The notes beneath the pieces were generated by a model, which did no database searches, had not been told where the DNA came from, and saw only the letters and a program-made list of their open reading frames with translations. DNA of 64,000 bases from Dudresnaya verticillata (taxonomy: Eukaryota). Within the stretch, counting starts at the first letter, position 1; the number at the start of each line of letters is the position of its first letter. The stretch covers positions 2,418,001-2,482,000 of the forward strand of contig OZ374560.1 of assembly GCA_977862235.1 (NCBI GenBank), read 5' to 3'. Below are positions 20,940-62,796 of the stretch, piece after piece. The translations under genes and the position numbers were made by a program.

Positions 20940-21140
20940 TTACCCTAAACGAGCGTCGTCGATATTCGGTGGAAGGTCCGTTCGCTTTTGGCGGTGGTAC
21001 CGCACGATATGCGAACGGGGCAGATTCGACACCGGTTCCCACGTGTTCGCTGTGGGGGCGTACCCAAACCACTTCACGAAGTAGAGGATCTCCCCGTCCT
21101 CCGCGAACGCGTGCTTCTCGATCCGGTCGATGACATACTC
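20940..21140 (-). CDS. Chromodomain at the end of Gypsy-1 integrase
   Basis: EYVIDRIEKH..YFVKWFGYAPTANTWEPVSNL. Confidence 0.9.
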   Translation of the reverse strand, partial: EYVIDRIEKHAFAEDGEILYFVKWFGYAPTANTWEPVSNLPRSHIVRYHRQKRTDLPPNIDDARLG

Positions 21141-25613: not shown

Positions 25614-25639
25614 CCCAGTGTCAGGAGTCGGTGCCCGGA

Positions 25640-27351
25640 TTAGTTTTTCGCCTCCGGCGGTGGTTGCGCTATGTAGCGGTTTAGCATCGTCGGGTGGCGT
25701 TCGGCTGCACGCGGCGCAAGTCCCGCCCCTGGCGATGATGAACGCGCGGCGCGACGGGCTGCTTCCTTCGTGGCTTGTTCCTTACAACGGTGGTACGCAT
25801 CAGCGGGTACTCCGTTCCTTTCAACCTCCATCAGGCCCTCGTAGTTGGCGACGACCTTCATGAAGTCACTCATTCGCAAGAAGCACTCCGGCGCGATGTG
25901 ACCGCGTGCATAGCACTGATGGCAAATAATTTGTCGCCGTACGTCTTGACGAGGGGGCCCTCGGTCCTGCCATCCGGGTCTTGCACGATGAACATGCGGG
26001 GCATATTCTGAATATGGTACGCGCGGCGCGGGTACATTCGAGCGCCCAAAGGCGAGAGCGGGATCCATTTCTTCTTCGTCTTCGACGTAACTGTCTGTCG
26101 GTAATGCTGACGTTGGTATCGAGAGCTGCTCGTCGGCTAGATACAAGTCGCCATCGGCGTGTGTTCTGACGTCATCGTTGCGGTGGCTAACGTCTCGGAA
26201 TTTGACGGATGACTCCGCCAGCATGGCGCGTGCCGCCGGCTTTGGACTCTTCGTCGGTTGACGGTTGACTGCGACGGCGGGTCGTGCTTTGCGGGCGAGT
26301 TGTGTCGGCACCAGTATATCCTGGCGACCCGCAGTCTGTCCGGCCCTGCCGTGTCGCGCGCGATGCGCGTCGCCCTCGTCCTGTGCGAAGTGCACCAATC
26401 GTTCGAACGATAACTCCGCCCTTGGCGTCTCTTCGCGGAAGCGGGTAACCAGCGATCGTATCGATGGATCAAGTCCGTCGATGAATAGGGTCATCTTCTC
26501 CCAGTCAGGGTACACGTTGCCGCAACGGATGCACGCTCCAGCGAGCCGCATGCCATAGGCAGTTTCATCTTCAGACCGCTTCTGTGCTGTTGAGCGTAAC
26601 GCCAGTACGGCGGATCGAATCGCCGAAGGCGTCGCATACGTACGGAGGAGGTACTGTACCGCCTCCGGGTATGAAGAGACCCCGCCTTGATGGCGTGTTG
26701 ACGTCGACTTGACGGACCGGAACTGCGTCAACGTCGTACCCCGTAGGAAGTATGGCAGCGCTATGAACGCTTGAGCTTCGCTCATTTCTAGCGTATCGGC
26801 CTCATCCGCGAAACGCGTAAGGAACTCAAGGGTCAGGACCGGGTCGTCGCCCGTGAAGGCGGCGTCCTTCATCGTCAACTCTAGATGTTTGATGTGGTCT
26901 TTGACCTTCCCGGTTTCACGTCCGGAACGCTTTTGCCCGACGTTCGTCAGACGGTAAGTACGATACGACAAGAGTCGATCGAATAAGGGGTTGGTTGTTG
27001 TTGTTCCTCGGCAAGGCCGGCTTGTGTTCCGTCTACGACGCCTTGTTGCTCCGCCTGGACGGTGTCGGCGGAGTCAACGTAAGTGTGGTAGGTACGGAGG
27101 GCGGAGCCTTCCGGGACTGAAGTACGAACGACGATCGGATTCGGCGGGGGAGCAGGTTGTCCCCTGTTCAGCGAAGCGTGTGACACGTCATGGTCCGGCG
27201 GTGCCGTAAAGGCTGAGGCAATCTCCGGACTGACGTGACGACCAGATCGTGTCGTCATGGGTTGGGCCGGTCCCGACGGCGGCATAGTGCCGGGCGTCGA
27301 AGACGGGCGCCGGGAGGATCCACGCGATAGCGGTGGTCGCGGTGGACCCAT
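25640..27351 (-). CDS. gag: Gypsy-1 gag (frameshift near 26960)
   Basis: CHQCYARGHIAPEC knuckle and a capsid-like region similar to Gypsy-2 gag (YRTYRL / YRTHRL). Confidence 0.85.
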
Positions 27352-27456
27352 GATTGTTTCAAAGAGGTAGGCGAACGTCGTGAACGATGGGCAGAACGTC
27401 AGGGTGACGGTTAAGCGATCGTCTCACAGACGTTAAAGTTCGTAGATACGTAGCAG

Positions 27457-27475
27457 CTTCTAGGTCGGGAGACCA
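27457..27475 (-). promoter_or_regulatory. Gypsy-1 primer-binding site
   Basis: TGGTCTCCCGACCTAGAAG, 2 nt downstream of the 5' LTR. Confidence 0.85.
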
Positions 27476-27477
27476 GT

Positions 27478-28312
27478 TGTCGTGCAAACGTCGTATCCAA
27501 GACGAAGAACGCCTCCGGGCCGTTCGGGAGCCCGGTGGGTAGCCGCTAGTAGCGAACGGGGTAGAGCGGGTAGAACACGCCTAGGGCGGACTGTAAACAC
27601 CCAGGGCGAGCGGACGAAGGGGCAAAGAAACCCAAAAGGAAACACGTTAACAACGAGTTGAAACGTGGAAACACGGATGGGTAGACGCTTATGCCTTCGA
27701 GCAGCGGTAGGGTGCGCGCTGACGCGAAGGGGAAGTCCAGACTCAAACCGGCTTGCCGGGGCTTTACTGTTACGTCCTGGACGAGGTACTAAGTAGTACT
27801 ATAGCGCCGCAGTACGGCGGCTGCATGACGTAGTGCGCGGGGTCTCGGGACGCGTGTCGCGTGGAGGTGCGTCTGACACGTCCCGGGATCATGCAGCCGC
27901 TGTGCGCGGGCGCGTATGTCTCACGGAGGCGTACCCGCACTCTGCTGTAAGCGATCCGGATTCGGATCGTGATTGACACGTATTACAGGCGCCTTCCCTT
28001 ACAGAGGATCCCGATGTCGGATCCGGATGTCGGATCCGGATTCGATCGGGATCCGGGCCAATCTGACAGTCGACTCCCTTACACCTCGTTGATCCCGATG
28101 CATCATCCGGATCCGCTCTGCAGCGTTGCGCCGTACAGTGCGTCGGGCGTGCGCTGCGCTGGGTGGCGGTGCCCGCGCGTCCGTGGGCCAATCGTCGATG
28201 ACGTGTTCGCGCCAACGGCGAATGAGCCGTTTCAGAGGCGACCGTCCGTCGGTCGACGAGGTTATCAGCGCCCGTGGCGAGGAAATAAAAGCCCGGTCCC
28301 CCGTGCGCCACA
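27478..28312 (-). repeat. Gypsy-1 5' LTR
   Basis: TG...CA, followed by the PBS on the minus strand. Confidence 0.97.
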
Positions 28313-32964: not shown

Positions 32965-34029
32965 TAATTTCTCGTCAACATCTGTGCAGGTGCAGAATCT
33001 ACAGCATCCTCTTCGTCGCCTTCACCGCTATCACTTGGTGTTGCTTAATCTTCATTAACATCTATTTCTTCAGCCGAAGTTTGAAACTCACATGCAAGAC
33101 AGCTACAAGTGATATTGGTTAAGCTGCGCAGCAAGCTTCCGAGATCTTTGTTTCCTGTTTCTTCCTTATCATATACGTCCCTATATTTCGTGGCTACATT
33201 CAGTAGTGCGAACCTTGCGCTCATGAACGGGACGAGGTTCCAACCTTGTAAGTATCTCGAGAAATATGTCGTCTTCTTGATGCGGTTGTTAAACGACTCA
33301 GCTGCACTAGAACGATGCCCATAGAGGTCTTTTTACATATCCGCATTGAATGCGCTACAGTAAGTGTGTGACTTGTAATGAAATCTATTAACTACAATCT
33401 GCGACAGGTGCAGAAGCCATGGTGTACGCAACAATGTCGAAGTCGAAAGATTACAACCGTTGTCGTAATAGATAACTCTCGGCGGTATTCGGAAGTGTGT
33501 TAGCATAGTTGACAACGCCATAGCGGTTGACTCAACCTTTGTCATCACAATGTACCCAATTATCTTGGGACGGTCGCACACACACATTACTACAAGGAGA
33601 CCCGGCGAATGGTATTCGCTTCTCATGTACTCTTTTCGACAGTGCTGCTTCTCCAGAGTGTCGAAAAGGATGCCAGGTCGAAACGATGCCCGTCCTGGGA
33701 AACAGATCCCAGTATCTCGGCTATTGTTCCGTGTGTTTGAAATCTCATGAGGTAGTACTCTGTCGCAGCTCATCGCATAAGCTTTGCTTTCAGCAGAGCA
33801 TGTCCTTGTGAGATCCCGAAAGAACTTGGAAACTTTTTTGATTTGCTGAAACACAACGTCACCAATAGCGGACGCGAGATATCTCTTCTGTACGCTATGG
33901 TGATCAGTCAACAGAAACCATTCAGTGCAGAAGCGATATAAGATAGGATTCACTCCTTGAACTGCAGCAGCCTTATCCCGAACCGTCACCAGGCAATTGC
34001 AGCTGCCATCACCGTCACAATCTTTTATG
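32965..34029 (-). pseudogene. KDZ (Kyakuja-Dileera-Zisupton/HMGXB3-like) transposase, C-terminal catalytic part
   Basis: C.K....HSPGL...CVC..IIGY..M...ES, IYYDNGC, VVNRFHYKSH..C, then past a premature TAA at 33333 SSAAESFNNRI...ALLN. Confidence 0.8.
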
Positions 34030-34034
34030 GCTAC

Positions 34035-34797
34035 TGTGGTGCAACGGCAAGGGGGCCACCGAAAGGAAGCAACTCGACGGGCCAACTGTACGATCGGCCC
34101 AACCAAACGAAGACACTTGGCCAATGAAGTCGTGCCGTCGGGGCGCGAACGGCGGTGAGCGCGCGGAAGTATGAAACGTGGCCACCGACTGTACACGTGG
34201 CTCACACGTGGCCACCTACGACACCGAAGCGCACCACGTGGCCTGCTGTACACGCATGATCTGATTTTGCGACCAGACACAAATCGAAATTGGATTTGGC
34301 CGCACAGTGAATCAAAGGGAAGACAGTGGAAAAATCAAGGGAAAATCTAACTCGCATGGCCAACCACTAACGCACAAGTACTTGGTTTAGTCTCGCAAGG
34401 GCCTTACATTGGCCCGAAGCCGGAACGCAAGTAGATATTATGGCCGACCGGAGTAACCTCGGCCACTAACTGTAGAATAGCTCTAGATTAGCTCAGATGG
34501 CCGATTTTGGGCCTATTTAGCTGGCCACACACTACGGCTAAGCCGAAAAAGGTATGAAGCCGTCCCGCCAGAGGTTGGGAGTAAAGTTAGCAACTGAACC
34601 CCCGACTGGGCCATTTTACGTCCTCATCACGGATACTGGCCACGACTTCGTCTGCGCGCTCCCTCTCTACCACGCTTGCTACCGGCGCGCAGGTCCGTTC
34701 TACGTTCGGCCAGTTTCTACGAAATCCGACAGGTCTTTGTGGTCTTCTTGGGGTCTCGTTTGGCTTCCGTACGCGGCGGTGCTCTAGAGATACTACA
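34035..34797 (+). repeat. Gypsy-2 5' LTR
   Basis: TG...CA; matches 46479-47241. Confidence 0.96.
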
Positions 34798-42849: not shown

Positions 42850-45800
42850 CTAACGACCATAAGGGCTTGGTGAGCGAGGAGAACCCGAAGCATAGGGCTC
42901 TCTGCTCCTTGACTGCGAAGGCGCATGAGGCGCTGTCGCGGGAACACGTGGGGCCGTCGCAGGAACGGTTGGCGGTGTCACAAAAGGCGAGGTGGCCGGC
43001 AGAGATAAGCTGCCAGGAACATGGCCAGGCTGAGCAACATTGGCCACAGGGGTCGGCGGAGCCGACACAATCGGACGAGTTGGCTCTCGTTGATAATCGG
43101 CCGGTCGAGACGGCGCACGTGGATGACTAGTGATATCTCCAGCGTGAGATGGCGTGGGGGTTGTGGCTGGTGCCACTGAAACCCCGGGATATTGCGGCAT
43201 AGCCGGCGCAGGCGTAGGCAAGGAAGACAGAGGAAACTGAGGCATCTGGCCAAAGACAGGGGGCGCATAAGCTGCGCGCAAACTGGCCAGTTGATGAAAT
43301 CCACGATTGCACTCCATTTCAAGTAAGGCCTGTTGATTATGCGTCTCGTCGCACCAGCGATCGCACTGCCTCTTCCACTCAAGACCCTGCTCGTTAGATC
43401 TGGCCAGTGACTCCTTTGTGGCCCGCAACTCGGCCTCGACCTGATCTTTCTGTCTTCTAACATTGGCCAGCCGCTCTTCACCCCGGCTGATCACCTCCTC
43501 CACTTCATCAACATGACGCCGTAGGCGGTTGAGTTCATCGGTCTGGCCACGCTTTGTGTCGCTGAGGCGGCCAAGGCTCTGGTTCAGCTGCCGCAAGATA
43601 TTAGCGAAAAACATTTGGTTAACATGGCCGCGCACAGAACGTTCGGCCACCACATGCGGATGAGGGTGCAAGAGGGGGGCCCGCACGATGGAAGCGTCGT
43701 TGGCCACTTCAACTCCAAAGCTACTGCCATGCCGAAAAGTCACTTGTTTGTTCCAGTCGAAACCGCAATAATTCTCATCATGGCCAGCCCTGCGTTGAAA
43801 CAAATGGTCCCGGTGCAGCACTGTGTCGACCAACGTCTCATAAAACGACACAACATCTGGCCAATACACATGATTGAACTGATGCTGATGCTCCTGGCTG
43901 ACGGGGAGGTAGGTAAGATCTTTCACCACCTCGACCCGTCGAGCAATGGCCTGAGAAGACATCCACCACATTCTATTCGACGCCTGTGCTTCGTAGTGAA
44001 AGAAGATGCTGGCCATTACATGAAGCTCAATAACAGCCGTCTCCTGGAAGCACTCAACCCAGGTGGGGTCGAGGGCATGACGACGATACTGGCCAACAAC
44101 ATAGTAAGCCAAAGGACTAAGCAAGCTGGCCTCGCCTCTCGATGGCCACTCCTTCCAAAGAAAAGCGGGAACGCTAGGGAAGAACTCAACAGGGGGCCAA
44201 AAACCTTCTTGGCCGCGAGTACTTCCATGGTAGACATAGCTACCACCCGTGCGATGAGCCAGCCAATCTCCCGGCGCTATGATGCGACGAAGATCTGTAC
44301 TGGCCATTTTTTCGTTTCGCACGGTCGTCTGTTCCCAGCGCTCTAGCATCCACGAGTGAGGGAAGGCTTAATACCAAGTGGAAGTGCAGGGATAGACGTT
44401 GGACTTGCCCTTGAATCAACCAAGCTCTGTGGACATACATTACGTCTTGCGCACACAACAGGAAGGCCCGGTCGCACTCGATTTCCGAAGGGATCCAATA
44501 GAGATGGCCATTTTCGTGCGACTCGCGATATTGGTGCCACGCCTCGCCCAGAGAACAGTGGCTTTCACGAATGCGAATCATGTCCAACTTGTCACTGTCG
44601 GCCACTAACTCGGTATAAGGTATATCTACGCGAGGTAACTTCGGCCAGATAGAAGTGCCTGGCAAACGTTCGTCCAAAACCAACTCGGGGCCATTTTGAT
44701 CTTCTAAGCCCGGTGGAATGTCGGCGCGGAAAGGCACAGCAGCACGAGTTTGCGAAGCTGGCTCGCGATCCGGATGCGTCGGGGCAGAAGGTCCAGTACT
44801 CGAGCTTGGGTTCTCCTGGCCAGTCTTGGTGATACCCACAGTTTTTTCGCGCGGTATAACTTCCTTCCCGCGAGGCTCTTCACTCGGGCCAGATGACTTG
44901 GGCTGCACACCTGCAGAAGGCGTAGAAGAAGACTGGCCAGTTTTAAGCTCATCGGCGTCGGGGAGCAAAGCCACAAATCGCCGCCGATCGCCGTCGGACA
45001 TAAGGTTGGCCGGCGGGATAGGTGTGGAAGCATCGACGTCAATAAATTCGTCGCGAGATATCGGGCCAACTTCCTTAGGGGGCAGCCGCTGCTTCTTGGC
45101 AGGAGGACCCTGAACAGCGGGCTTACCAATGTTTAACTTGGCCAGCTCACGCGCACGACTCGCAGCCGTCGGCATGAAAGGCGAAGGCGCCGAGCGCAGT
45201 CGTGGTGTAGATTTCCTCGAAGCACTTGGGGTTGCCGAACGTGACGACTTTCGCGGCACGGGGATATTGGCCAAAGCTTCTGGGGCCTTCTGCTCCAACT
45301 TATCTCCTTTCTTCTGCGCTGGCCCAATCTTCTCAGCGCCTCCAGGTACCTCTTCCTTGCTGGCCAGTGGTTCTTCTCGAGCGGGCACAAATACCATGGC
45401 CGAATCAGAAGCCTTGGGTTGAGCCGAAGCTACTTCTTCAGCTGCCGCAGTGGTAGCTTGAGTAACCAATGGACGATGGATGGCAATCACAGCCTTCTCA
45501 ATAGCGCTGGCCAACGGCGGTGGAGTAGGATTAATGGCCGTTGGCACAGAAGTGCTTGCGGCCGGCGTCAACTTCTTCGCCTCGAGGCGCTTCACTTCGG
45601 CCTGCACCAACCCTTTCTCAGGCGCTCCTGCTATCTTCTGGCCAGTTTTTCTCGTCTCCTTCGCTAGCGGGCCGACGATAGGAGATGCAGTCGGCTTACC
45701 CTTTCCGAGTTGGCCTGTTGCAGCCGCTGCCTCCTCCGACGAGGATGATGCGACGATGGTCACGCTGCGCACCACCTTGGCCTTCTGCGCATCGGCAAGT

Positions 45801-46240
45801 TTCTTCTTCAGAATGGCCAGTTGCTGCTCCTCAGCTTCGCGCCTCTTCTGACTGGCCGCTATCTCCTGCATTAACTTGTCGGTGCCAACGTCGGGCGTAG
45901 CTTGCACCATGGCCGGGGTTGCAGAGGCAGCAACACTCTTCTTCTGGGCAGTTTTGAGGGGCTTCTCCACCGCGGCCGCCTTCGCAGCAATCAACGGATC
46001 GTTAGATGCACGACTTGGGGTCTTGGGTGCTGGGGCAGAAGACGCCCTGGGCGTCTTCATCGCACGCGGCCTCGAACTCTGGCCAGTCTTCTTCGTGGTC
46101 GCCTTCACTCTGGCCACAGCGACTTCTTTGTTGCTCGACGGCGGTGTGGATGATGAACTAGAAGAAACGGTCAGTCGTACAGTCTTCTTCTTGGCCGACG
46201 CGGTGCGGCGCGGACGCGCTTTCGCAGGGCCACCCGCCAT
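42850..46240 (-). CDS. Antisense extra ORF of Gypsy-2, unknown function (two overlapping frames)
   Basis: ORFs 44240-46240 (666 aa, Lys/Ala/Pro/Ser-rich) and 42850-44349 (499 aa: aromatic domain, coiled coil, Pro-rich tail). Probably one frameshifted gene. Confidence 0.7.
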
Positions 46241-46478
46241 CGAGAGCGAACTGGCCAGGTGCGCACGATGGAAACCGAAACGAAGGAAGACGCGCGCAAG
46301 TTGTCAAGAAGCGAGAACGCCCGCGCAATGTTTTGGCAAGTGTTGGTAAGAGGAAGCGTGGTGTGGGCAAGATGGTGATGGCCGAGTGCAGCGAGAGGGG
46401 TAGCGGCGCGGATCACGCGCGCTGATATGGCTAGATGAAACCCTCGCGGCCAGGAGTCCGCCCTTGCGAAGGGGGCTC

Positions 46479-47241
46479 TGTGGTGCAACGGCAAGGGGGC
46501 CACCGAAAGGAAGCAACTCGACGGGCCAACTGTACGATCGGCCCAACCAAACGAAGACACTTGGCCAATGAAGCCGTGCCGTCGGGGCGCGGACGGCGGT
46601 GAGCGCGCGGAAGTATGAAACGTGGCCACCGACTGTACACGTGGCTCACACGTGGCCACCTACGACACCGAAGCGCACCATGTGGCCCGCTGTACACGCA
46701 TGATCTGATTTTGCGACCAGACACAAATCGAAATTGGATTTGGCCGCACAGTGAATCAAAGGGAAGACAGTGGAAAAATCAAGGGAAAATCTAACTCGCA
46801 TGGCCAACCACTAACGCACAAGTACTTGGTTTAGTCTCGCAAGGGCCTTACATTGGCCCGAAGCCGGAACGCAAGTAGATATTATGGCCGACCGGAGTAA
46901 CCTCGGCCACCATCTGTAGAATAGCTCTAGATTAGCTCAGATGGCCGATTTTGGGCCTACTTAGCTGGCCACACACTACGGCTAAGCCGAAAAAGGTATG
47001 AAGCCGTCCCGCCAGAGGTTGGGAGTAAAGTTAGCAACTGAACCCCCGACTTGGCCATTTTACGTCCTCATCACGGATACTGGCCACGACTTCGTCTGCG
47101 CGCTCCCGCTTTACCACGCTTGCTGCCGGCGCGCAGGTCCGTTCTACGTTCGGCCAGTTTCTACGCAATCCGACAGGTCTTTGTGGTCTTCTTGGGGTCT
47201 CGTTTGGCTGCCGTACGCGGCGGTGCTCTAGAGATACTGCA
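46479..47241 (+). repeat. Gypsy-2 3' LTR
   Basis: TG...CA, preceded by a purine tract. Confidence 0.96.
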
Positions 47242-48100: not shown

Positions 48101-48104
48101 CAAG

Positions 48105-49277
48105 AACACAAATTTCGCCGGCTACAGAATTTCCAAAACAGAACAGAATTTTTTGAGGGTCCTTGAATCCCGGCGTTCGATAGCGCGTTGGAAAGGGAGC
48201 CCTACCCTGAGAATAGTGGTGCAAACAGATCGGAGCAAACGCAAATAGTTTCGGAGTTATGCGCTCCGGCATATGGGCCCCCCCGGGGTCGAAAGTTCCC
48301 GAAACTTGTGATTTTTCCGAAACGTTCCAATTAAAAATTCCCCAGAAATTGATTCTGCCCCGTCCCGCCGCCCGCGCCCCCGCCCCCGACCGCACACCGC
48401 ATTCTGGCGACTTCCCGCCGCATTCCGACGCGCTCGGACGTGGCTTCCCACCGCATTCCGACGCGCGCTCGGCCACCTCCTCACGTCCGACAGCCACTAC
48501 CACCATCACCCTTCCTGGTGCTGTTACTGGCCGACACATTCCGCATTCCGGCGCGTGCGCACGCGCTCTGCTTCTGCCTTGCGCGTAATGAGCCGCGCTT
48601 CCCCACCCCCTCCCAGACCCGTAGTGCCGCTCCCCGCCCCAGTCCAGACTGTGACCGCACTCTGTCTCACGCTCCCTGCCGTTCACCGACACCTCGCCGT
48701 CACCCTTCCCCGCTCACCGCGCCCGGCCGCATTCTGACACGTCCACATCAAGTTGCCGCATTCGGGCGCACGGTCAGCCCCTCCCAGCAGTCTCCCGACA
48801 CGCCTCCCTCACCCTTCCCCGCGCTCCTGCGCATCGCGCCCGGCCGCATTCTGACAGGTCCTCATCAAGTGCCCGCATTCTGACGCACGGTCAGCCCCGC
48901 CCAGCAGTCCCCCGACACGCCTCCCTCACCCTTCCCCGCGCTCCTGCGCACCGCGCCCAGCCGCATTCTGACACGTGCTCATCAAGTGCCCGCATTCTGA
49001 CGCATGTTCAGCCCCGCCCAGCTGTCCCCCGACACGCCTCCCTCATCCCTACCCCGCCCCCGTGCGGCAGCCCCGCCCAGCTGTCCCCCTACACGCCCCC
49101 CTCAGTCCTACCCCGCCCCCGTGCGGCACGGCCACCCGCATTCTGACCCGTCCTCACAACTGGGCCCACTACCCGTCCGACCTGGTACACTACCAGGTAG
49201 CTAAGCCACTTGCGCACCCGCGGTTCGGACTTAACTTGTGGCGTAGACTGACGTTACAGGCGTCGATTTCCCTTGCG
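48105..49277 (+). repeat. Left TIR with 117-bp tandem units and CCGCATTC motifs
   Basis: Reverse complement of 61803-62792. Tandem units start at 48727, 48844 and 48961. Confidence 0.92.
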
Positions 49278-49456
49278 GTTCTGCACAATGCCAGCCTGAC
49301 CCCATTGCATTCTGTTGTCTGCGCCGCGTTTATTGCGCCGCAGCTGAGGACCATGCCATACTTCAATGGGGCACATCCCCGACTGTAGACCGCCAAATGG
49401 AATGAAGCGCATTGCTGTGCTCATGGGAGAAGGCCACCACTTTACTATATCTAAAG

Positions 49457-49987
49457 TTAGCAATCGCTGCTATCATGCTTCCGCATATACAGCCCTTCAC
49501 AACTAGACAGTTCATTGTTCAGGCTCCTCATGATGCACATCCTCACCTCCGGTTTCATTGCGCGGCTGTTGGACATGTAGAATTTGGTGCAAATCAGACG
49601 TGTGTAGCGGTCCAGTTGATACGCGTTCTCTCCGCCCCTGTGCAGCGTTTCGACGATCGCGAAGTCTATAGCATGGGCTGCACCGTGTACGTACTTGCCC
49701 CTTCCCACGAGAAAGATTTTCTTCAGCATCAACCTGTACAACTTTTACAAAGCTTTCTGATGGTGGGAATGCTCCATCATCGTCTTGTCTCCGTAAAATT
49801 GCTGTGATGATTCCCAAGCCATTTGGGCACGATCCAGGTCATTGTGGTTGTCCAGAATGTCGTCGTCACTGCTAGGGCTTTGGTGCGTCCAATTTCGTGC
49901 CTCACGACTAAGATCTTCCCCCATCCGACGTTTAACGGCGTTGTACAGCTTTTCCACATCCAGAATCATGTCATCTATGGTCTCCAT
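49457..49987 (-). pseudogene. Decayed cargo ORF, unknown
   Basis: Two same-frame ORFs (49745-49987 and 49457-49741) separated by one TAA. Confidence 0.35.
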
Positions 49988-50486
49988 ACAGCGTTATTCT
50001 GGTCACAGCAGATTATGGTGGTGAACGAACACTTCGTTTCATCTCAGCTCTCTTTCCGAAATGGCCGAGGCCTTTAACTGCGACAGGATCACTGCGTTCC
50101 TGAACAATACATAGTCCATCTTTCCACGATCTCACGGGTGTCCATTTCATATGCGTTGGAGACAGCCCTGGGCGCACTCCGGTACGTAGTCGATCAATCA
50201 CTTACTGCCAATATGCCGCAACGTTGCCAACAGCTGCAGCAGTACGGTACATGTGCCACACTCGCGACAGCCTTCCGTGACAGATTCTGTTTGGTGGACC
50301 AAATATAACCCCCGCGTTCATAGTACGGCACGTGGAAGCACTGGCGTTATTCGAGTAAATGGTGCCTGAACGACGTCGAATTCATGGATCATGGCGGAAG
50401 CAAGACGCAAAGACATGTTCAGAATACGGATGCTCGATAAATGTTCAATTCGGCCTATGACAATAGTACTGTACTGACTATAATTC

Positions 50487-53400
50487 CTACCCAATCTTTT
50501 TCATGTTGTGCAAGTCCCACGAGAACAACAAGCCGTTTAGGCCCTTGAGATTGGCAGGAGGGTCCTCTAGTCCCTTCAATATATACGGATACGAACTTAG
50601 CTCATACTCCGCCATGACCTTCAAACTGTACAGGACCACAAGATGCTCCCCTGGTTTGGCAGATTCTGACAGATCGTGGTCGTGCAAGCGTTCATTACAG
50701 TTCCCTCCTGGAGTCTTTTCAGGATGCAACACGGCCTCCCCCACTTCCTTATCATCTGCAAGAAGCGTGACTCTGTCTCCGGTCTTGGGCATTGCACAAG
50801 GTTCAGGTGTTTTCCTTCTCCTGCACCTTTCATTCAGCTCCACACTTCCTACAACTATGTCTTCACTCCTGCCGTGCTTCTCGATACTCTCTTCGCGGTC
50901 ATCCAATACGTGCTCGGACGGTGTCTTCAGATGGGACATTTCAGGTCCCTTCCTCGTTACGGAATGGTTTGTTGGTTGAGCAGAATCTGTTTTGACAACA
51001 CTACCTCTTGCTGCCTCACCGATACCATTCAGTTCGTCATGAGCACTTGATTCCAAACGTTTACGACCTGTCTTCATTTCATATGCTTCCGTGGCAAGCC
51101 TACGCAAACGTTCAGCCCCCAGCTTGAATTTTCGACCTGTGATTCGATTAGTGTACACCGACGATCTGTTCTGAGAGCTGCAATCCCAGTCGTCATGGTT
51201 CCGCTGTGCATATCCAGAACTGACCCGCCCTCCGGACAGAATGTTGTCATTATCTCCACAAGTACTTCGGGAGACTTCTCTTCGACCAGAACTGGGGACT
51301 TGGTGCCTGGGCGTAGCAACTTGTGTTTCGGTGTTGGTAGAGAGGACATGCACGCGAATTTCCGCTTTTCTGGGGAGGGGATGCAGTGATACTCGCTCCT
51401 AAGGTCGAACGAGAACCCTCCGCCATGCTGACCTGGGGCACGCGCCATGACGGCTATTTCCACACAGTTCTGGGGCATATCGCTCCCCCGATGTTCCTGC
51501 ATGGTCTTGGGGTCTTTGGAGAATACGAATGGGTATGCTGGGCACACGAATTGTGCCTTCTTCAGAGCATCGTGGAATATACTGAAGTTCAGGAATGACG
51601 TGAAAACAAACGACCACCCCCCTGCTACAAGTACGCGCCTCGAGAACTCAACTATCTTCTTAATGTCTTCCTCGCTGAGGTAATTATCGAATGACCTCCC
51701 CGACTTAGACTGCGATTTCGGTGTACCGTATGGTGGATCAGTGAGGATTAAATCGAATCGTTTGTCACCTTCCTTCCTTACGGTACTGTCGTAGCTCTGC
51801 CATGTCATGTGAAAGCATGTCAGTTTCATTTCCGCAAGATAATCTATTGGAACAGAAAGCGATCCGTCCTCCACCGGCACAGGCTTAGTACCCATGTTGA
51901 GGCGAACAGACTGCTTTGATGACACAGTTGATGCAGTGGGGTCTGTGGGACTCTTTTCCGGTACAGAAAGGTCTTTGGCTGCACATGCAGCTTTAGGGTC
52001 TGCGTTCTGGACGGGTGTCTGTCCAGATTCTGCTGGTTCGCGACCTTCTTCCCTTTTCGAATTGGTTGATGTTGCTAAGTCTAAAACCTCGTTGTCATTA
52101 GAGATTCCGGTAGCGTCCACCCGCGGTGACAATGTGCAGTCCAAATTCTGTTGACCGTCAGAATCTTTTGTTCCACATTCTTTGGAACCCGGGCGGGTCA
52201 TGACAGCATCATCACGTCTGCCTTCTGTCGAATCCATCACAGTTTGCAGATCTTTGTACTTCTGCAACTTCACTGGGGCCTCTTCCGTACAACACTCTCT
52301 GTACATCTCAACTATTGTTTTCAACAGTGTACGGTCATTACCTCGATTCCTGATGACCTCAACGTCCAGCTTCGTAGTGTGTAACAGGTTTTCTCTTAAT
52401 TTACTCATGCCTGACGGCCATTCTGTCCTCTCCCTCATCGCTTCAAACTTCCGAGTCTCGGAAAGGGCGGCTGAAGCTTTCAAGAATTGCTGTTGCGTGT
52501 GTTTGGCCGAAGCAGGTTTGAAATTGTGTGTCCTTGACACCTCTCGAAGCCTGTACAGAGTAGCTATTTGAACAGTAATGCCGTTGTCAGAGCTGCCTGC
52601 ATTCATAAAGGCCTTGGAAGACTTGATGGAACTGACGTGAATGAAGCGTCTGTATACTCTACAATCCAGATTCTGCATCGCGACATTTGAGTCTATGGCC
52701 TTTCCGGAAGCAGTCAACAGTTGCATAGTTGCTAGTTCAGGGACCTCCTCCTTCATTATCTTCTTAATTACATCGATAACGCGACGGTCAAGACGAAGAA
52801 CGGTTGCCGCTGTCTGTTTGATAGTGTTTTCCGATAGGTGACTGCATCAATCATATGCTTCGGCAACTGCCGTCGCAGTCGGAGTCTTCCCATTACTGGC
52901 TTCGAGACGGTCTGCCTCTTTCCTAAGACCGCATATCTGATCGTAAAACGTGGTCTCTACAAAAAAGCTGGAGTCGTGCTTTCTGTTCTGATGACGAGCC
53001 AGTTGCTTCAGAATCTGGATGTTGTGCCCCCCTTTAAGCACAGTGGCAGTCAAAGCAAACTCCTTCCATGTCTCCCGGTCTTCATCGATTAGCTCCATAA
53101 TGGCGATAAGTCGATGCATGCCATCAACAACTCCGAACCACTCCGACCGACTGAAGGCCTCTTCTTTCACCTGTTTCTCTGTGTACTCTGTCCCATCCGC
53201 ATTCCGTTTAGCTCGGAGAAACTCAAAAATGAAACTCCTGAAGGGACCTGTTAGGCGAGCCAGTATGGACGCATCAGAACCGGCAATGTACCCGTTGTTG
53301 CAGTTAGCGCTCCTCGTCCCACCACCCCTAAAAATCTTCTTGAGCCTCTCAACACCGGATCTCGAGATGTCCCTTATATCAGTCATCGGAACACAGGACC

Positions 53401-53518
53401 TGGGGTCTATTCGAATGTTGGTAGACCCCTCCATGACATCTCCAAACAGTGCCTGTGCCATATCCTCCTTCCTCAAGGGCTCACTTGACCCCCTGCTCCG
53501 CTTCTTGCGCTTCGACAT
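50487..53518 (-). pseudogene. NLS-ParB/Srx-HTH-beta-class N6A/N4C DNA methyltransferase-C-terminal domain fusion (~1010 aa; one TGA, one frameshift)
   Basis: MSKRKKRSR NLS and VVDGMHRLIA ParB motif. FDLILTDPPY (51728-51739) precedes EKSPE and VLDMHSGTMTTGIAA, the beta-class order. The TGA at 52847 is in frame with ORF 51074-52756. A 1-bp loss near 51130 links to FKLGAERL in ORF 50487-51353. Confidence 0.88.
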
Positions 53519-54409
53519 GGTGCGCGAGAGAAAGACTCGCTGTGCACGTGAAAACCGCTCTCCTTGAAAGAGTACGGAAAGGGTTACTGCATGTCTGATG
53601 AGTTGTCCAGATTCTGTTCAGAAAACCTTTCGCAAGAAGTTCTTTACGTCCCTGGCTCATGTTTGCAGGGTGCCGTTTTCGACTGACACCATACGGGTTT
53701 TCGACACACCGGACGGCGGGAGTACGACATGGATGTGCCGCAAATTCCGACATGGCACGGGAGGTCACGTGGATTGTTCACCGGGTGTGGGCAGTCTCCG
53801 TCAGAACTTATTCTTAGCACAGGCCGTACAGTTGGAATTGGTAGAATGCAGGTTTCACAAGACCTGCAGGGCGAGATGTAACAAAGTCAATTAGGGTATG
53901 CTGCTCGCTGTCCCAGCCGACTTGGCCGGGCTTTGAAGTTGAGGCCAGCCTGGCCAGGTGCTGATACTGCGAGTAAAATAGCATGCCACACACGGTGTCG
54001 GTGAGTACTGGCACACCGTTGCCAGCGGCGTGCCAGCGGGGGGGCGCGGCGGTCAATTTACGAGGAACAGGTTCTCGGGGGTGGGAGGTGTCAACACCTG
54101 TGGGTGCAATATCAGTATCAGGGAACAGGTGGGGCGAGAGCGCCGGGCCAAATAGCTGTTCTTTTGATGTGGCAAATTGCGCGCTGAAAAACCTGTATAG
54201 ATTTTCTGTCCAATGATATTGAATAAGCTTGTAAAAGGGTCTTTCCATTGGGCCGCCTTCAACACCTTTACAGCTTCTGAATGCGGCCAAGTCACATTGC
54301 TATGAGAACAGATATTGCGCTTCACGGCAACGCAGGAGCCCAAAGTGCAATATCAGTATTGGGGAACAGGTCCTGAGAGCCAGCAAACTCCACAATCTAT
54401 CTGGCCTCG

Positions 54410-55360
54410 GCGCTGCTCCCGCTCCTGCTGCTGCTCATCTTCCCGTTCCACGCACAACAACCTGCACCCGTCGCACCTGTACCTCGTTCATCCGCAGTCC
54501 GTGCTGCGCCTCGTCCGCCGCGCCGCCGACACCCCCACGTACCTCGCCGTGGCATCCGCCCGCCTGCAAGTCCTGCTCGACCACTTGCGTCGCTTCGCCG
54601 CCGAAACAATCCCCGCCAACGTCCGCGTCGACACGCAGCTCCACCCTCGCTTCGCCGTCGGGGTCGTCGCGCTGCACAACCTGCGGCACTTCGCCTCCCT
54701 CGCGCGCGTGGACCACTGCCAAGCCGCCGTGCAAGCGCTCAACGCCTTCCTGCACGAGTCCCGCGCAGACTCGCGCAACCCACTCCCGCACCCGCCCGCC
54801 TCGCTCTTCGACCACGCCCCGGTCGACGCGCGCCAGCCTGACCATGCGCCCGTGCCGACCACCGCCGCCGCAGACCTGGCCGCGCAGGTGACCATGGTGA
54901 TCCGCATCCGCGATGTGCTCCACAACACCCCACCCCACCGCCCGCCCCTTCACTATGTCCCACTCCGCGGAGCCACACTTTCGCCTGTCCGTCGTCCGCC
55001 GCAACCGCTTCCCGGCCACCTGGGTGCTCATCGTCATCGCAGACTTTTCCTGGTGGGTCGCGTTGTAATAGCGTACACGCTATCACCAAGGACGTCGCGC
55101 CAGGCCGATATGGCCTACCTCAAAAACTTGCCGCATGTGTTTGGGTGCTCGCTGGACGCGAACGGCGGCTGACGCTTCACGCTTGGCCTTGAAACAGGAG
55201 GCGAGCAATTTACTCTCATTGATGGCATGAACGAGGGCGAGGCGCTGTATGTCGCCTGTGGTGAAGCGGTCGTTTCGGAGTGCGGACGACGGTTGAGCCG
55301 ACCCGCGCCCGGCGCAGTGGTGAGCTGGCGCCAAAAGCCGAAACGGAGTGCAGCGACACA
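54410..55360 (+). pseudogene. GC-rich captured gene fragment, unknown
   Basis: Abrupt GC3-rich codon usage within ORF 54315-55172; the reading continues past the TGA at 55170. Confidence 0.35.
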
Positions 55361-57921
55361 GTAGCACTGTATACCTTTCTGGAGTCTGCGCGCACCACGA
55401 ATAGGAGTCAAGTAGTTGATTTATTTGTAATTAGGTAATTATAATCATGCTGTACAGTACGTAGTGTCAGCCGGCCAATAAGAATGCCGAGCATGTCCGC
55501 AACGGTGACCGGGACCAGTAGGGCCGGACCCACCTGGTGGACCAGACCCATTGGGGTCTGGCCCACACGGACCGGACCGCGGGGCGTATCTCCCAGTATA
55601 TTAATGGGTGGCCACCGCGAGTCCTACAGTAAACGGGTACGCAACCCTGGGCAAAGGGACTTACCCTAAGCCTTACCCTCATACTCCTTTACGGTTTCCC
55701 CTCGCCAGCCCCGTGCACTGATTCCTCTTACCTCCGTCCCGGTGTAGCTTTCCTGGCACTGTACCGTCCCCCTTGTCTGTTGGGTCCCTTTACTCCTTAC
55801 AGGTGTTGCCGCTCGAGGTACTCCCTTCGGTCTACGAACTAAGCTCTACCACCCCGGTGCCGTGTGAGATCACTCCTTATTGGTATTTCCTGATCAGCTC
55901 TCCTTACATCCTTACAGGTGTGTCACCACATCGCCCATGTCCTGCGCGAACAGTTTCCGTAATGCTGTGGCATAGTATAGAAAGTGCCGCAAATGATGGT
56001 GCAGGCAGCCTGCTAGGAACGCAAGGTCAATTACAAAAAGGAGAGCGTGTATTGTCTTGCAGAGGGAGTCAAGGCCGTTCTGATTTCCGTGGTTCGGCTT
56101 GTAAGGATCGAATTGTGGTTGTTGTCGGAACCACGTTCCCTTACCTTTCTTTGAACAGTTTTACCCAACGCACCAGCTTCGTCCAGTGTCACGTTCCCTC
56201 CTCTTCGCAGGATGCGGTAGTGCTGTTGACTCTTTTTATTGTTTGGTAGGCTTATAATTGGACTTTGACTTCGCTTGGTCAGAGTGTAGGAAGCACAGAA
56301 TCTGTTACATTCGCCATCCATTCCACACCAACACAACAAACCATCAGCTGTAGCAGGCGGTGGGTTAGTCTCACGTGTTCACCTGTTGTGCCATCCTTCA
56401 CCTGCAATTAATTTTCGCTGTCCAGCCCTCTTTCTTCTGCCTGTTGTCTCTAGAGGTGAAGATAACTCTTTGACAGAGCAACAAATTCACGAATCTATAG
56501 ATAAATATGGTAACCACGTTTGTGAAATGGTGCGCTGCTTCATTGAGATTGTGGTATTGCCTACTTTTGTTCAAACGTGATGCTACTCAGGCAACGACTG
56601 AATAAAAACAAACAACACTGCGCGCGAGTTCAGTTTCTTCGCCTTATGACAGCGCAGCGCTTCGAGCTGGTTAAAAGCTGGACGTGATGCTTTGCCGTTA
56701 ATAGTTTGAATACAGTCTGTAGAAAACGATAAAAGCTGCATCACTGCCGTGAGCGGATATCCACATTCAGATTCCCCATCAGAAATGCCGTATTGTCGAA
56801 TCTGATTCAAAGTCTCAACTCATCTGTTCCTACTCTGGCGTTCAAATATATTCTTCACGAGAGGTGAGGTCACTTGTTTGTTAAAGTCTGACCACATCTG
56901 TACGACTTTCTGCCTTGTGCTGTTGCGACTATTGTCACCACTTAAGCCTCGCTGAGCGCCCCCAAACATATCCATTATCGTGATCGTACCGACAGTCAAG
57001 GGATGCCACTTGCTTCGCTATCAATATTTAGCAAGTAATCGCTGTCGACTTGCCCTGTCTTCACACTCTTGATCCTTGTTACGCCTAGCGCTCTCGCCCC
57101 GTTCGGGAGTATTCCCTACAATGGCAGCCTGTCGGAGAGCCGCTTGCCAACAGCGGCAAAGTCCCAGACGCGATCACAGCTAGCGTGCATCGACTTGGTC
57201 AAGCTGTACCGAGGCACAACTGCCGGTCTGAAAATGAATGCGCACTTCAAATGTGTCCGTTGCAACAAAACACTTCGTGTTCGGGGGTTCCTTGATGATC
57301 AGGTTCATTTGTTTGCTGAAGTTTCCGACGCCACTCTACTAGCGCCACATGTCCATCGTCTTTGTCCTGAGCCCTGTCGTCTGCTTCGCCGATCCTGAAA
57401 CCCTCATGCTACTGCAGTACCTTAAGGCATTGAGACAACTGTAGCAGCAGCATTTCCATTCGTGCTGTGCCGCGACTTCCTTGGAAGCGTCTGCAGACGA
57501 TATCAACTCGTGATGTAGGCGCACTGCAACTGCCAGTTCACCCCAGAGTGACCGTCAGCTGTATGTGTCCGCCTCTCACAAGCTGCAGCTTTTGTGGCTC
57601 CGCATGCATGCGGAAAGTTGTACCTGAAATGTAATTGGCCAAGTGCAGAACCAGAATATGATCACAAACAGAATCTGGGTTGCAGAATAACCCAGATGCA
57701 CCTCGTGCAGCCACTCGTGCCGCTCCACGGGTGTGAAGCCTCAAGAGCAGGCAACAGGCGGCGCGCCGCGGTATCACAGAGGTTATTTAATGCGCAAGCG
57801 TTTCGCTGCGAAGGGCTGCGCCTCCCCGCCAGGTTGGCCAGGTGCCTTAACAGACTGCAAAGTGGGCGCTCTGCTGAGAGCGTGAAGGGAAGACAGAACG
57901 AGTTGCACTCTCACAAGCTGT

Positions 57922-60900
57922 GTGCAGATACCGTCGCAGGACATTTTGAACGACATGGAAATGAGCCCGGCAACTACGGATTGCGCTGAGCGAGAAAATG
58001 AAGCAAAGAAAGGAGGAGGCAAAGCACGCGACGAAGGGCGTGTTGCTCTTCTGTATGACAGGGAAATGGTCGGCACTGCTATTGTCAAGAGACCGGGGAC
58101 AAAAGAGGACACAGACCAGTCTGGCAGGTATTGTGTCACCCTGCATGGCCACAAATTGTCTCCCAGTCAGAAAAAAGGGGAGAAGCTGGTTGTGGTTTAC
58201 CGAGCACAAATCATGCAACCGTATGAGAAACTTCAGTACAAATACAAGTACAAGACAACGGACTCCGTTCCGCACACACTTGCGGAGATGGGTGGGGGTT
58301 TTCATGCATGGGATGTGAACTACATTCAGGAGCTCGGCAATCGAGAAATCGCGCCGTTGTGCCAGAGACGGTTGTACTCTCCACGAAAGGGCATACTTCG
58401 TCGCAGAATTTACCCAATACTGAGCAGTTGCCCCCCGACGTCAACTGCAGAAAACACTGCCGCAGCGGTGGCCCCTACCGCATCGCCCCAGCAGATGACA
58501 CCAGTTGACACGACCAGGCCAACATCACCCCTCCAACAAAGTGCGGGGCCGCAAGCGGATGCCGCAGCGCGGTCAATTCGAACAACACCCCCGCCTTGCA
58601 ATGCTCCGAGCAGTGAGGAAATGAGTGAACCGCGAGAGCATTTGAGGGAGGCCAGCCAGGATGATGCGGACGCCGTACGACACGTGTCGGAAAGTGATGA
58701 CGATGCGTATGACCCTTTTCAGAAGTTGCAGGTCAGGACGAAGCGAAAGTATACTTACAGGAAGAGAAAGCAGCGGACATTCAGTGGGAGAGGAAGTCTT
58801 CAGAAGAGACGTAGGCACCTGTTCAAAGACCTGGAACGCGCAAACACGCAGTCAATGAGATGCTGCATCGGGAACAAGTGCTTCCAAAGTGTGTAGCAAG
58901 TGTACGTAAAGGCGGAGGCGCGCAGAATTGCCGGAATGAACGTAGAAGCAAGGCGAACGTATCTATGCAATCTGGTGGACACGAGCAAGATGAAATACTT
59001 TTCAACCGCCAGCCTGTCTGTTACAACTTTTTGGAGCAGGCCTTTGGATTCTCCCGCGACTTACAGACGTCTGTAAAAGGCACGAGGCAGTCCCGGAAGC
59101 TGCAACTTCCAAACAATGCGAGGCGTGATACCTCATCTCATCAGCAGGATACTATCATTTGCTTCCTTGAACGTCTTGCAGACAGCACTGCTGAACCAAT
59201 GCCCGATAATGGGGAGTCACACCTCCCCTACTTTCAGAAATCAGTTGTGTACGACATCTTCAAATTGGACCACACCAGGCTGTACAGAAACAGGGATATT
59301 CCGTGTCAGAGTTACTTTTACTTTGTATGGAAACACAGTTGCTCCCGCATTGAGGTGCGAAAGACACACCGATTTGCAAAGTGCAGCGAATGCGAACTCA
59401 TTCGCGAGCGACTTGCTCAGGCAGGGACCTCTGGAGCAGGCACTGAACACCTGCATGAGCGGCGCAACATTCACTTGAAATTCATACAGGCAGAGAGACG
59501 TGAATATCAGAAAAATGTGAGAAGGCGATACTATTGCCGCAAGAGTATTGCTCCCTCATAGTGGATGGTGCTGATCAGTCCGCATTTGGACTTCCCCATT
59601 TTGTGGTGTCGTCCAAAGCCAGCATTGGGCATGCCATGAAAGCGAAACTTATTGGGGTGCTTGAACACAGGGCTGAGAAGCGTCTGCACTTGTACAGAAT
59701 GACCGGTGAGTTCGAGACCGGCGCGAACCACATTATCGAGGCGTTGCACAGAACTCTTTCGGACAAACAGTCCAGAGGAGAGCTACAAGGGACTTTATTT
59801 CTACAAGTAGACAACTGTTCGAGAGAGAACAAAAATACCTTTTTGTTCTGATACCTGGAGAGTCTCGTTGCATGGGGTGTGTTCCAAGAGGTCTTCGTGT
59901 CTTTCCTGCCCGTCGGGCACACTCACACAGATATAGATCAGGCCTTTTCGTGCACGGCACGCCGGCTTAAAGTTCGGGACGCAGTCACAATGACTGAATT
60001 GATGGAAGAGCTTCGGCAGTCGTACAGTCCAGAACCAGTTGTCAGTCGCATGCTTCAAATTGCGAATTTCTCAGGCCTCTGTCGGCAGGAAGGATGCATT
60101 GGTAATGTTGAGGCATTCACGACCTATCGCTATTTCAGATTCCACCGTGTGGGTCCAGCTGCGACGGAAGAGGCAGAATCTGTTGCAGCTTTCGTGACAG
60201 GCTGTCAATTGAGAATGACATGCGCGGATGACTGGGTTCCGTTGCAGACAGGAGGAGAGCATAAGGGGTTTATACTATCCCCTCCTGACCTTGGCAAGTG
60301 TGGCGCACGGGGGACCGGCTTTTATTTCCTCGCCATGGGCGCCGATAACCTCGTCGACCGACGGACGGTCGCCTGAAACGGCTCATTCGCCGTTGGCGCG
60401 AACACGTCATCGACGATGGGCCTACGGACGCGCGGGCGCCGCCACCCAGCGCAGCGCACGCCCGACGCACTGTACGGCGCAACGCTGCAGAGCGGATCCG
60501 GATGATGCATCGAGATCAACGAGGTGTAAGGGAGTCGACTGTCGGATTGGCCCGGATCCCGATCGAATCCGGATCCGACATCCGGATCGGACATCGGGAT
60601 CCACTGCAAGGGAAACGCGCCTGTAATACGTGTCAATCGCGATCCGAATCCGGATCGCTTACAGCACCGTGCGAGCACGCCTCTGTGAGACGCACGCGCC
60701 AGCGCACAGCGGCTGCATTGTCCCGGGACGTGTCAGACACACCTCCACGCGACACGCGTCCCGGGATCCCGCGCAATACGTCATGCAGCCGCTGCACCGC
60801 GGCGCTATAGTACTACTTAGGCACCTCGTCCAGGACGTAACAGTAAAGCCCCGTCAAGCCGGTTTGAGTCTAGACTTCCCCTCCGCGTCAGCGCGCACCC

Positions 60901-61742
60901 TACCGCTGCTCGGAAGCAAAAGCGTCTACCCATCCGTGTTTCCACGTTTCAACTCGTTGCTAACGTGTTTCCTTTTGGGTTTCCTTGCCCCCTCGTCCGC
61001 TCGCCCTGGGTGTTTACAGTCCGCCCTAGGCGTGTTCTACCCGCTCGACCCAGTTCGCTACTAGCGGCTACCCACTGGGCTCCCGATCGGCCCGGAGGCG
61101 TTCTCCGTCTTCGATACGACGTTTGCACGACAGCAAGACGCCAGCAACAGTGGTCAAATCGCCACCAGATTTGAAGGAAGTCAACGACAGGTTTCGTTCT
61201 GAAGAGACACGTGTGAATGACACGGGAAAGATGAGGGAGCTGCAGGAATTGCGGGACCACGTGTACAGAGATAGGCTGGAAACGTTTCATTGGGATATGG
61301 GACACATATTTGAGACAAGGGGAAAGTACAGCGGAAGAGCGGCGCTGGAGTACGTACCGGAAGGGGATGACGGTCAGGAGGAGACTGTGACCCCCCTTCA
61401 GACCTGCAGTACACGAAGAACTACTTCGGTGCCGTTGTGAGGGAGAACGCCACCGCGCGATGCCCATTTTGGGTTGGACAGATTCTAGATTTTGTGCAGG
61501 ACGCTACGGGAAAGGCTACTGAGCTGTATATAAGATGGTACGAGGCGTATGACGGTAAGGGTGCTTGGGACGGAAAGTACAAGGCATCCATATACTCAGC
61601 GACTAAGCAGCCATGGACTGGTACTGTCGGCGTCGCGACCATAATGGTCGAATTCGAAGCTCTTACGAAGAGACGTCTACCGCAGCTCGTCCAGAAGAGA
61701 ATCAGAGAATCGACATTGTTAGTTAGGTATGCCGGCTCTTGA
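57922..61742 (+). pseudogene. Sola1/DUF7869-like DDE/D transposase, frameshifted and interrupted by solo LTR
   Basis: RFAKCSEC, LIVDGADQS, LQVDNCSRENKN and FLPVGHTHTDIDQAFS across ORFs 57922-60298. It resumes at 61138 and ends with an FWVGQI..IRWYE module. Confidence 0.8.
60299..61132 (+). mobile_element. Solo LTR of the Gypsy-1 family (834 bp)
   Basis: Reverse complement of 16306-17140 with many substitutions. TSD GCAAG (60294-60298, 61133-61137). Confidence 0.96.
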
Positions 61743-61802
61743 TACGAGAAACAGCTACAACCAGTAAATTCTACTCTCAGGTTGATGCAGCACACGAGAA
61801 AT

Positions 61803-62792
61803 GCAAGGCCATTCGACGCCTGTAGCGCCCGTTTACGCCACAAGCTAAGTCCGAACTGCGGGTGCGCAAGCGGCTGAGCTACCTGGTAGAGTACCAGGTC
61901 GGGCGGGTAGTGAGCACAGTTGTGAGGACGGGTCAGAAAGCGGGTGGCCGTGCCGCACGGGAGCGGGGTAGGGGTGAGGGAGGCGTGTCGGGGGACTGCT
62001 GGGCGGGGCTGACCATGCGCCTGAATGCGGCAACTTGATGTGAACGTGTCAGAACGCGGCCGGGCGCGGTGCGCAGGAGCGCGGGGAAGGGTGAGGAGGC
62101 GTGTCGGGGGACTGCTGGGAGGGGCTGACCGTGCGCCCGAATGCGGCAACTTGATGTGGACGTGTCAGAATGCGGCCGGGCGCGGTGAGCGGGGAAGGGT
62201 GACGGCGAGGTGTGGGTGAACGGCAGGGAGCGTGAGACAGAGTGCGGTCACAGTCCGGACTGGGGCGGGGAGCGGCACTACGGGTCTGGGAGGGGGTGGG
62301 GAAGCGCGGCTCATTACGCGCAAGGCAGAAGCAGAGCGCGTGCGCACGCGCCGGAATGCGGAATGTGTGGGCCAGTAGCAGCACCAGGAAGGGTGATGGT
62401 GGTAGTGGCTGTCGGACGTGAGGAGGTGGCCGAGCGCGCGTCGGAATGCGGTGGGAAGCCAAGTCCGAGCGCGTCGGAATGCGGCGGGAAGTCGCCAGAA
62501 TGCGGTGTGCGGTCGGGGGGCGCGGGCGGCGGGACGGGGCAGAATCAATTTCTGGAGAATTTTTAATTGGAACTTTTCGGAAAAATCACACCTTTCGGGA
62601 ACTTTCGACCCCGGGGGGCCCATATGCCGGAGTGCATAACTCCGAAACTATTTGCGTTTGCTCCGATCTGTTTGCACCACCATTCTCAGGGTAGCGCCCC
62701 CTTTTCCAACGCGCTATCGAACGCCGGGATTCAAGGACCCTCAAAAAATTCTGTTCTGTTTTGGAAATTCTGTAGCCGGCGAAATTAGTGTT
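61803..62792 (-). repeat. Right TIR
   Basis: Inverted copy of 48105-49277 with fewer tandem units. Confidence 0.92.
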
Positions 62793-62796
62793 CAAG

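Follow-up and report, generated by a model that had tools for sequence, protein, structure and literature searches.

A domain shared by a predicted amino-methyltransferase and a DUF7869 transposase in a decayed DNA transposon of Dudresnaya verticillata

The window analysed here, a stretch of 64,000 nucleotides from Dudresnaya verticillata contig OZ374560.1 (positions 2,418,001 to 2,482,000), contains a decayed DNA transposon of about 14.7 kb in which a methyltransferase gene on the minus strand and a transposase gene on the plus strand lie back to back. The features are as follows, in window coordinates.

48101..48104 (+): 4-bp target duplication at the left end, CAAG, with its second copy at 62793-62796; ends of the element AACAC..GTGTT
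48104..62793 (no strand): the whole decayed transposon, delimited by its inverted arms and junctions, inside a KDZ-like transposase gene
48104..49282 (+): left long terminal inverted repeat (TIR), with subterminal repeats, 11 copies of CCGCATTC and units of about 117 bp
50490..50786 (-): shared domain, copy A, a predicted SH3-like barrel that closes the methyltransferase at its C-terminus, directly before the stop codon 50487-50489
50787..51136 (-): linker of low complexity, its frame broken by a one-base shift near 51130
51137..51754 (-): amino-methyltransferase domain of the permuted (beta-class) N6/N4 kind, containing DPPY (PF01555, E 5e-10)
51755..52846 (-): conserved middle region and variable linker, from alignment A3 and the ORF list; in-frame stop at 52847-52849
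52850..53506 (-): likely ParB/Srx-like N-terminal domain with a VVDGMHR motif; weak profile matches
58027..58338 (+): shared domain, copy B, at the transposase N-terminus; likely start about 57955, open frame 57886-58893
58339..60298 (+): linker, cysteine motifs and DUF7869 core (PF25273, E 3e-15 and 8e-25); stops at 58894 and 59849, frameshifts near 58998 and 59512
60299..61132 (no strand): solo LTR (TG..CA) interrupting the transposase, flanked by a 5-bp GCAAG duplication; 94% to 16306-17141 and 27478-28312
61377..61739 (+): predicted BAH-like C-terminal domain (AF2 pLDDT 90.6)
61797..62793 (-): right long TIR, with subterminal repeats and 7 copies of the motif

When the empty site was rebuilt, the KDZ-like host reading frame continued across it. 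As read from this one insertion, the junctions can equally be taken as a 2-bp AA duplication with ends GAACAC..GTGTTC, and the empty site is the same either way. The TIR arms were 94.8% identical over 879 bp, with weaker similarity to about 1.2 kb, and 18 of the 22 window copies of the CCGCATTC motif fell inside the two TIRs. That the element has truly decayed is clear from the stops and the LTR; several of the window frameshifts lie in homopolymer runs, and some of them may be assembly errors. A metagenome scan for an intact element returned 59 loci with weak matches to the catalytic domain only (best E 4e-10), none with the shared domain, and yielded no intact copy.

The surrounding window is a nest of LTR elements. 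The KDZ-like gene (33333-63809, minus strand) is interrupted by the 14.7-kb element and also by a Gypsy-type LTR element, the LTRs of which (34029-34797 and 46474-47241) are 98% identical and which has long antisense ORFs at 42850-44367 and 44240-46303. The KDZ match itself is weak (E 0.008) and lies in a further piece of the gene at 33336-34334. Another Gypsy-type element (16306-28312) has LTRs that are 99.6% identical and a 672-codon antisense ORF (17655-19673); its LTR family was the source of the solo LTR in the transposase.

The window methyltransferase gene is broken by one stop and one frameshift. P0218, an intact relative of 999 amino acids, aligned to 53506-51140 in one frame and to 51152-50493 in the next, covering both window frames in order and indicating that they belong to one gene. 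The nearest solved structures to the methyltransferase domain were of the DpnA type and CcrM, and DPPY precedes the SAM-binding motif, which is the permuted order of a beta-class N6-adenine enzyme. Among the 24 methyltransferase clusters in which the catalytic motif could be seen, it was DPPY/F in 15 (DPPY in the window copy) and degenerate in 9, and all nine of the latter kept the shared domain. The DPPY motif, together with the analogy to other elements, suggests that the enzyme would write 6mA on element DNA; PF01555 enzymes have switched between 6mA and 4mC (PMC8885841). The N-terminus gave weak matches to DndB (4 of 19 members, best E 0.008), the ParB-like phrog_1033 (E 0.015-0.09) and DGQHR (E 0.07), and D and G of its DG-x-H-R motif were invariant in all 19 rows.

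In the transposase gene, a sibling contig from run X1 (depth 2.5, 255 bases, 15 differences) had neither the stop at 58894 nor the frameshift at 58998, which brings the frame of copy B in line with the DUF7869 core. Another run X1 piece retained the frameshift near 59512. The C-terminal domain of the transposase was predicted to be BAH-like: Foldseek ranks 1-12 were BAH domains or BAH-containing chains (best E 0.0065), and the VIA comparison with DNMT1 BAH1 gave Z 7.4 (rmsd 3.4, 83 aligned), below the tools' clear-match marks. Pfam returned no BAH match for it. Of the close DUF7869 transposases 79 of 82 had this domain, and of the distant ones 4 of 26, with ten aromatic columns conserved in more than 70% of 60 rows.

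Copy A (50490-50786, minus strand) and copy B (58033-58338, plus strand) were identical at 37 of 103 positions (36%; BLASTP E 4e-17). Their Smith-Waterman score of 141 far exceeded those of 5000 shuffles (mean 25, maximum 54; z=26). The original prediction that one domain of about 100 residues closes the methyltransferase and opens the transposase was thus borne out, including its coordinates and motif pairs. No similarity between the copies is left at the DNA level; aligned codons agreed at 49, 62, and 37% for positions 1-3, and four-fold sites in identical residues agreed in 2 of 18 cases, indicating that silent sites are saturated and that the likeness was maintained at the protein level. 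Across all six window frames, the refined family HMM detected these two copies and no other. A possible third copy at 53783-53577, suggested by a weak tblastn match, was not confirmed. The 36% identity between A and B compares with family means of 30% between groups and 34% within the methyltransferase group, so that the two are barely closer than the family background, implying an old mobile module rather than a private duplication. Of the old duplication under selection that had been proposed, conservation of the protein holds, whereas a simple duplication within the element is not supported by these identities or by the separate positions of A and B in the domain tree.

A two-sequence profile gave 76 matches among 1.84 billion representative proteins, of which 74 were true relatives; the other two, the repeat proteins P0007 and P0043, were dropped as false matches. 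The relatives comprised 19 methyltransferase fusions, 7 transposase fusions, 1 ParB-like fusion, and 47 short or partial sequences. The domain came last in all 19 methyltransferase fusions and first in all 7 transposase fusions, with a long low-complexity linker each time, and the intact fused relatives were 900-1050 amino acids long, with the domain at the methyltransferase C-terminus or the DUF7869 transposase N-terminus. Both in-frame fusions are therefore found in intact relatives; in the window copy itself, neither domain shares one open frame with its enzyme. Every relative with an identifiable partner domain was a protein type of the family of the 14.7-kb element. The methyltransferase is a stable component of that family, in keeping with the earlier claim that it is an integrated part and not passive cargo. 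A word-index search for longer proteins, run with the domain alignment, yielded nothing from 7991 candidates; this was a failure of sensitivity, as HMMER found many.

A query that excluded the domain retrieved nine methyltransferases, six with the domain, one truncated, and two complete without it (6 of 8 complete), and we infer that the methyltransferase protein is the usual home of the domain. The transposase search without the domain region gave 109 matches; leaving P0035 (truncated, domain-bearing) out of the counts, the domain was present in 13 of 82 close and 0 of 26 distant transposases, and in 13 of the 62 close ones with at least 100 residues before the core. Since the query transposase was domain-bearing, 13 of 82 is if anything an overcount. 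Two methyltransferase-transposase pairs probably share a contig, judging from source contigs of equal length (28 x 83 comparisons gave 2 matches, with a chance probability of about 2%). One consists of P0012, a methyltransferase with the domain, and P0118, a transposase without it that has 70 residues before the core and is possibly a short gene call; the other consists of P0087, a methyltransferase without the domain, and P0119, a truncated transposase. Where the shared domain would lie, P0087 has a C-terminal motif rich in cysteine and histidine, so that this slot may be exchangeable.

A third protein type, seen in P0016 and, by resemblance to it (E 0.007), in P0056, has the domain first and then a likely ParB-like region (DGRHR) without a methyltransferase. 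Against the ParB profile of the methyltransferases, this region of P0016 scored 3.2 bits, no better than shuffled sequences (up to 5.0 bits), so the label is taken from DGRHR. No remnant of a P0016/P0056-type protein was found within the window. P0038, a 185-residue protein with little beyond the domain, comes from a transcript of Agarophyton chilense that its source lists as complete; it is the nearest relative of copy B and could be a free adaptor or competitor. Near-invariant residues of the domain are H, Y-P-Y, P, and W-D (73-76 rows). The median net charge was -4 for methyltransferase copies and -2 for transposase copies; copy A has -7 and copy B, unlike most, +5.

A tree of the domain, built from 66 rows and 113 columns and with a bootstrap that had not settled, grouped 15 transposase-type copies in one clade (99/96). 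Copy A fell among the methyltransferase copies and copy B outside that clade, with stand-alone and ParB-like copies, although forcing copy B into the transposase-type clade was not rejected (AU test, p 0.056). In the transposase tree (37 of 88 rows; all rows by FastTree), the window enzyme was sister to 14 domain-less transposases (94/92), and the presence of the domain requires at least 3-4 gains or losses. Such a pattern could reflect either an ancestral domain that was later lost in places or one that was captured repeatedly.

AlphaFold2 modelled the shared domain from 47 sequences with a pLDDT of 93.9 and a pTM of 0.84. The 50 VIA matches listed were small beta-barrels of the SH3-like kind, and the model has the topology of a small antiparallel barrel. 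The best structural match reached Z 4.8 (KOW of DSIF, rmsd 2.5, 54 aligned), and KOW, PsaE, R67 DHFR, Tudor, BAH, PWWP, and CAP-Gly were tied as neighbours. The domain is predicted to be a generic SH3-like barrel over about 55-70 of its 103 residues, without a specific structural relative; the best Z is only 4.8, and likeness of fold says nothing about function. No clear match came from Foldseek searches of PDB and viral models or from an HMM search of PDB sequences. Pfam models gave no match, and PHROG and NCBIfam models none apart from one at E 0.08. Prediction of a complex of copies A and B scored 0.00; alignments were not used and the partner fold was uncertain, so this value carries no weight either way. 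The domain had been likened to the SH3-like Tnp1/En-Spm accessory domain; the SH3-like part of this agrees with the predicted fold, while single sequences gave no Tnp1/En-Spm match in Pfam. On transposon proteins, the accessory domains PF03017 and DUF8039 presumably show a similar strand pattern, marked by HG, P, and W. The plant Tnp1/En-Spm domain (PF03017) and DUF8039, to which the shared domain may be remotely related, gave no Pfam match to its single sequences, and its carrier element is not En/Spm; PF03017 is tied to CMC elements (PMC5751038).

En/Spm (CACTA) elements are recognised by 5'-CAC..GTG-3' termini (PMC12730594). The present element does not end in CAC..GTG. Its target duplication is 4 bp (CAAG) or 2 bp (AA) rather than 3 bp, as read from one insertion only. 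The core is DUF7869, not a DDE core of the Transposase_21 type with its C(2)C and H(3-4)H motifs, in the window and in all annotated relatives, and no C(2)C motif follows the second D in the transposase sequences read. The three-aspartate pattern D..D.x.x.x.KN..H...D resembles that of the Sola2 alignment (PMC3627910, in part), the 4-bp target duplication of Sola2 (same portion of PMC3627910) corresponds to one of the two equal readings here, and animal DUF7869 relatives are common to the Sola superfamily and this element. The ends, the target duplication, and the catalytic pattern do not support an En/Spm identity of the element, and by its sequence it is Sola-like, a likeness judged against Sola2 alone. 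It differs from Sola2 in its motifs (VDGADQ, DNCSRENKN, GHTHTDID), and from Sola in its TIRs of about 0.9-1.2 kb, its C-terminal BAH-like domain, and its methyltransferase gene.

As to function, we give an even chance to the shared domain being a protein-binding docking module that brings methyltransferase and transposase to the same place. Its terminal position, long linkers, confinement to the element family, mostly acidic charge, and retention in degenerate enzymes point in this direction. A fixed position behind long low-complexity linkers is that of tethered modules, retention in all nine degenerate methyltransferase clusters implies that the domain was kept for something other than catalysis, and a negative median charge fits protein binding better than DNA binding. 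On the ParB-like/methyltransferase protein, the domain would serve in self-association or in binding a common partner; certain transposase lineages, the second ParB-like protein, and the small stand-alone proteins, which carry it as well, could join the same complex or site, the copies binding either each other or a shared third ligand. DPPY-intact enzymes would then write N6-methyladenine on or near element DNA, which may tune transposition or blunt host silencing. An obligate form of the originally predicted tag coupling methylation to the transpososome was not supported, since with 13 of 82 close transposases carrying the domain (13 of 62 with long N-termini) most work without it; a facultative docking or targeting module is likely, rather than an obligate dimerisation tag. 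The basic charge of copy B and the probable P0012/P0118 pair, in which the methyltransferase has the domain and the called transposase lacks it, likewise speak against docking.

A KOW- or PWWP-like domain that binds nucleic acid, for example the CCGCATTC subterminal repeats or methylated adenine, would steer each protein independently to the element ends. The top structural matches do include KOW domains and a PWWP-ssDNA complex, one motif has 18 of its 22 copies in the TIRs, copy B is basic, and aromatic residues are conserved. However, most copies are acidic, copy A strongly so (-7), and conserved arginine or lysine is absent except for one lysine at 50%, and we consider nucleic-acid binding fairly unlikely. 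Somewhat less credit still is given to a Royal-family-like reader of methylated histone tails, making the methyltransferase a histone-read, DNA-write enzyme like rotifer N4CMT, the precedent described in PMC8885841. The acidic surface, the conserved Y, Y, W, and H, and the tied matches to Tudor, chromo, BAH, and PWWP (Z 3.8-4.4) would suit such a reader, but these matches do not rise above non-chromatin barrels (PsaE, R67 DHFR, CAP-Gly), Pfam reader models matched none of 47 or 55 members, and a clearer BAH-like domain lies at the other end of the transposase. The chromatin-reader role first proposed for the shared domain fits that C-terminus better (Foldseek top ranks, Z 7.4), and the model is suggestive of the BAH-like domain as the better histone-reader candidate.

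It is also quite improbable, in our view, that the domain matters only on the methyltransferase and that its transposase copies are passengers from recombination between neighbouring element genes. Such passengers would explain why most transposases lack the domain, why at least 3-4 gains or losses are needed on the tree, and why copy B groups with ParB-like and stand-alone copies and not with other transposase copies, although the AU test (p 0.056) does not reject copy B in the transposase clade. The 15-copy clade (99/96), with its own insertion and with the motif intact across very divergent transposases, argues for long retention. The docking module remains our preferred reading.

Other mobile elements encode their own DNA methyltransferase, namely DIRS elements with Dam-like domains, Symbiodinium DNMT retrotransposons, and Mariner-2_PGv of giant viruses, and there too some lineages are without catalytic residues (available portions of PMC4738411, PMC3627910, PMC5890265). 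The present element differs from these in being a likely nuclear cut-and-paste element, in its beta-class amino-methyltransferase with a ParB-like domain, and in the domain common to the transposase. Bdelloid rotifer N4CMT, in a eukaryote too, likewise joins a bacterial PF01555 enzyme of the permuted kind to a small C-terminal barrel; according to PMC8885841, it is encoded by the host, has SPPY and a true chromodomain, and silences transposons, whereas the enzyme here has DPPY, is transposon-borne, and ends in a barrel of no known family. TET/JBP-carrying fungal DNA transposons (PMC12730594, in part) also have a DNA-modifying enzyme as a stable accessory gene; here, in contrast, it is a writer and not an eraser, and the transposase superfamily is another.

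In a search that took in few subscription papers, no published description of the 14.7-kb element or the shared domain was found; Repbase and the supplements of PMC4738411 and PMC12115072 may hold such elements. DUF7869 and DUF8039 gave no literature matches, and domain sharing between methyltransferase and transposase is unreported in the available portions of PMC4738411, PMC3627910, PMC12115072, PMC8885841, PMC10294476, PMC12730594, PMC4455052, PMC5751038, and PMC5890265. The anatomy of the element is well supported and, as far as searched, undescribed, and the mechanism is proposed. With it come a domain family that has no name yet and, on DUF7869 transposases, a predicted BAH-like domain. 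Methyltransferase-carrying elements are known, and a domain common to enzyme and transposase offers a concrete handle on how the enzyme finds its element. Asparagopsis has 66 N6_N4_Mtase genes and three other red algae 4-6 (PMC12115072, in part), and the element family is a likely source of this expansion in red seaweeds, a link that we infer. It also predicts transposon-linked adenine methylation in red seaweeds. More tentatively, and with rather less confidence than in the docking module itself, we suggest that red-algal Sola-like transposons run their own epigenetic machine, in which a ParB-like adenine methyltransferase of bacterial type and a transposase with a BAH-like reader are joined by an SH3-like tag shuffled among element genes. 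If true, a eukaryote would harbour a cut-and-paste system that marks itself, and the 66 Asparagopsis genes would be explained.

Several further stretches lie within the element. Broken open frames at 49150-50480 and 53560-54400, both on the minus strand, had no match in Pfam or among the proteins searched and are possibly further accessory genes in decay; contigs of run X1 span 53775-54253, differing at many positions. A GC-rich open stretch of 288 codons at 54306-55172 (plus strand), without a Pfam match, is possibly captured host sequence or another insertion. Between the two genes, at 55460-55960, the run X1 contig depth was much higher (about 27), suggesting a small high-copy repeat.
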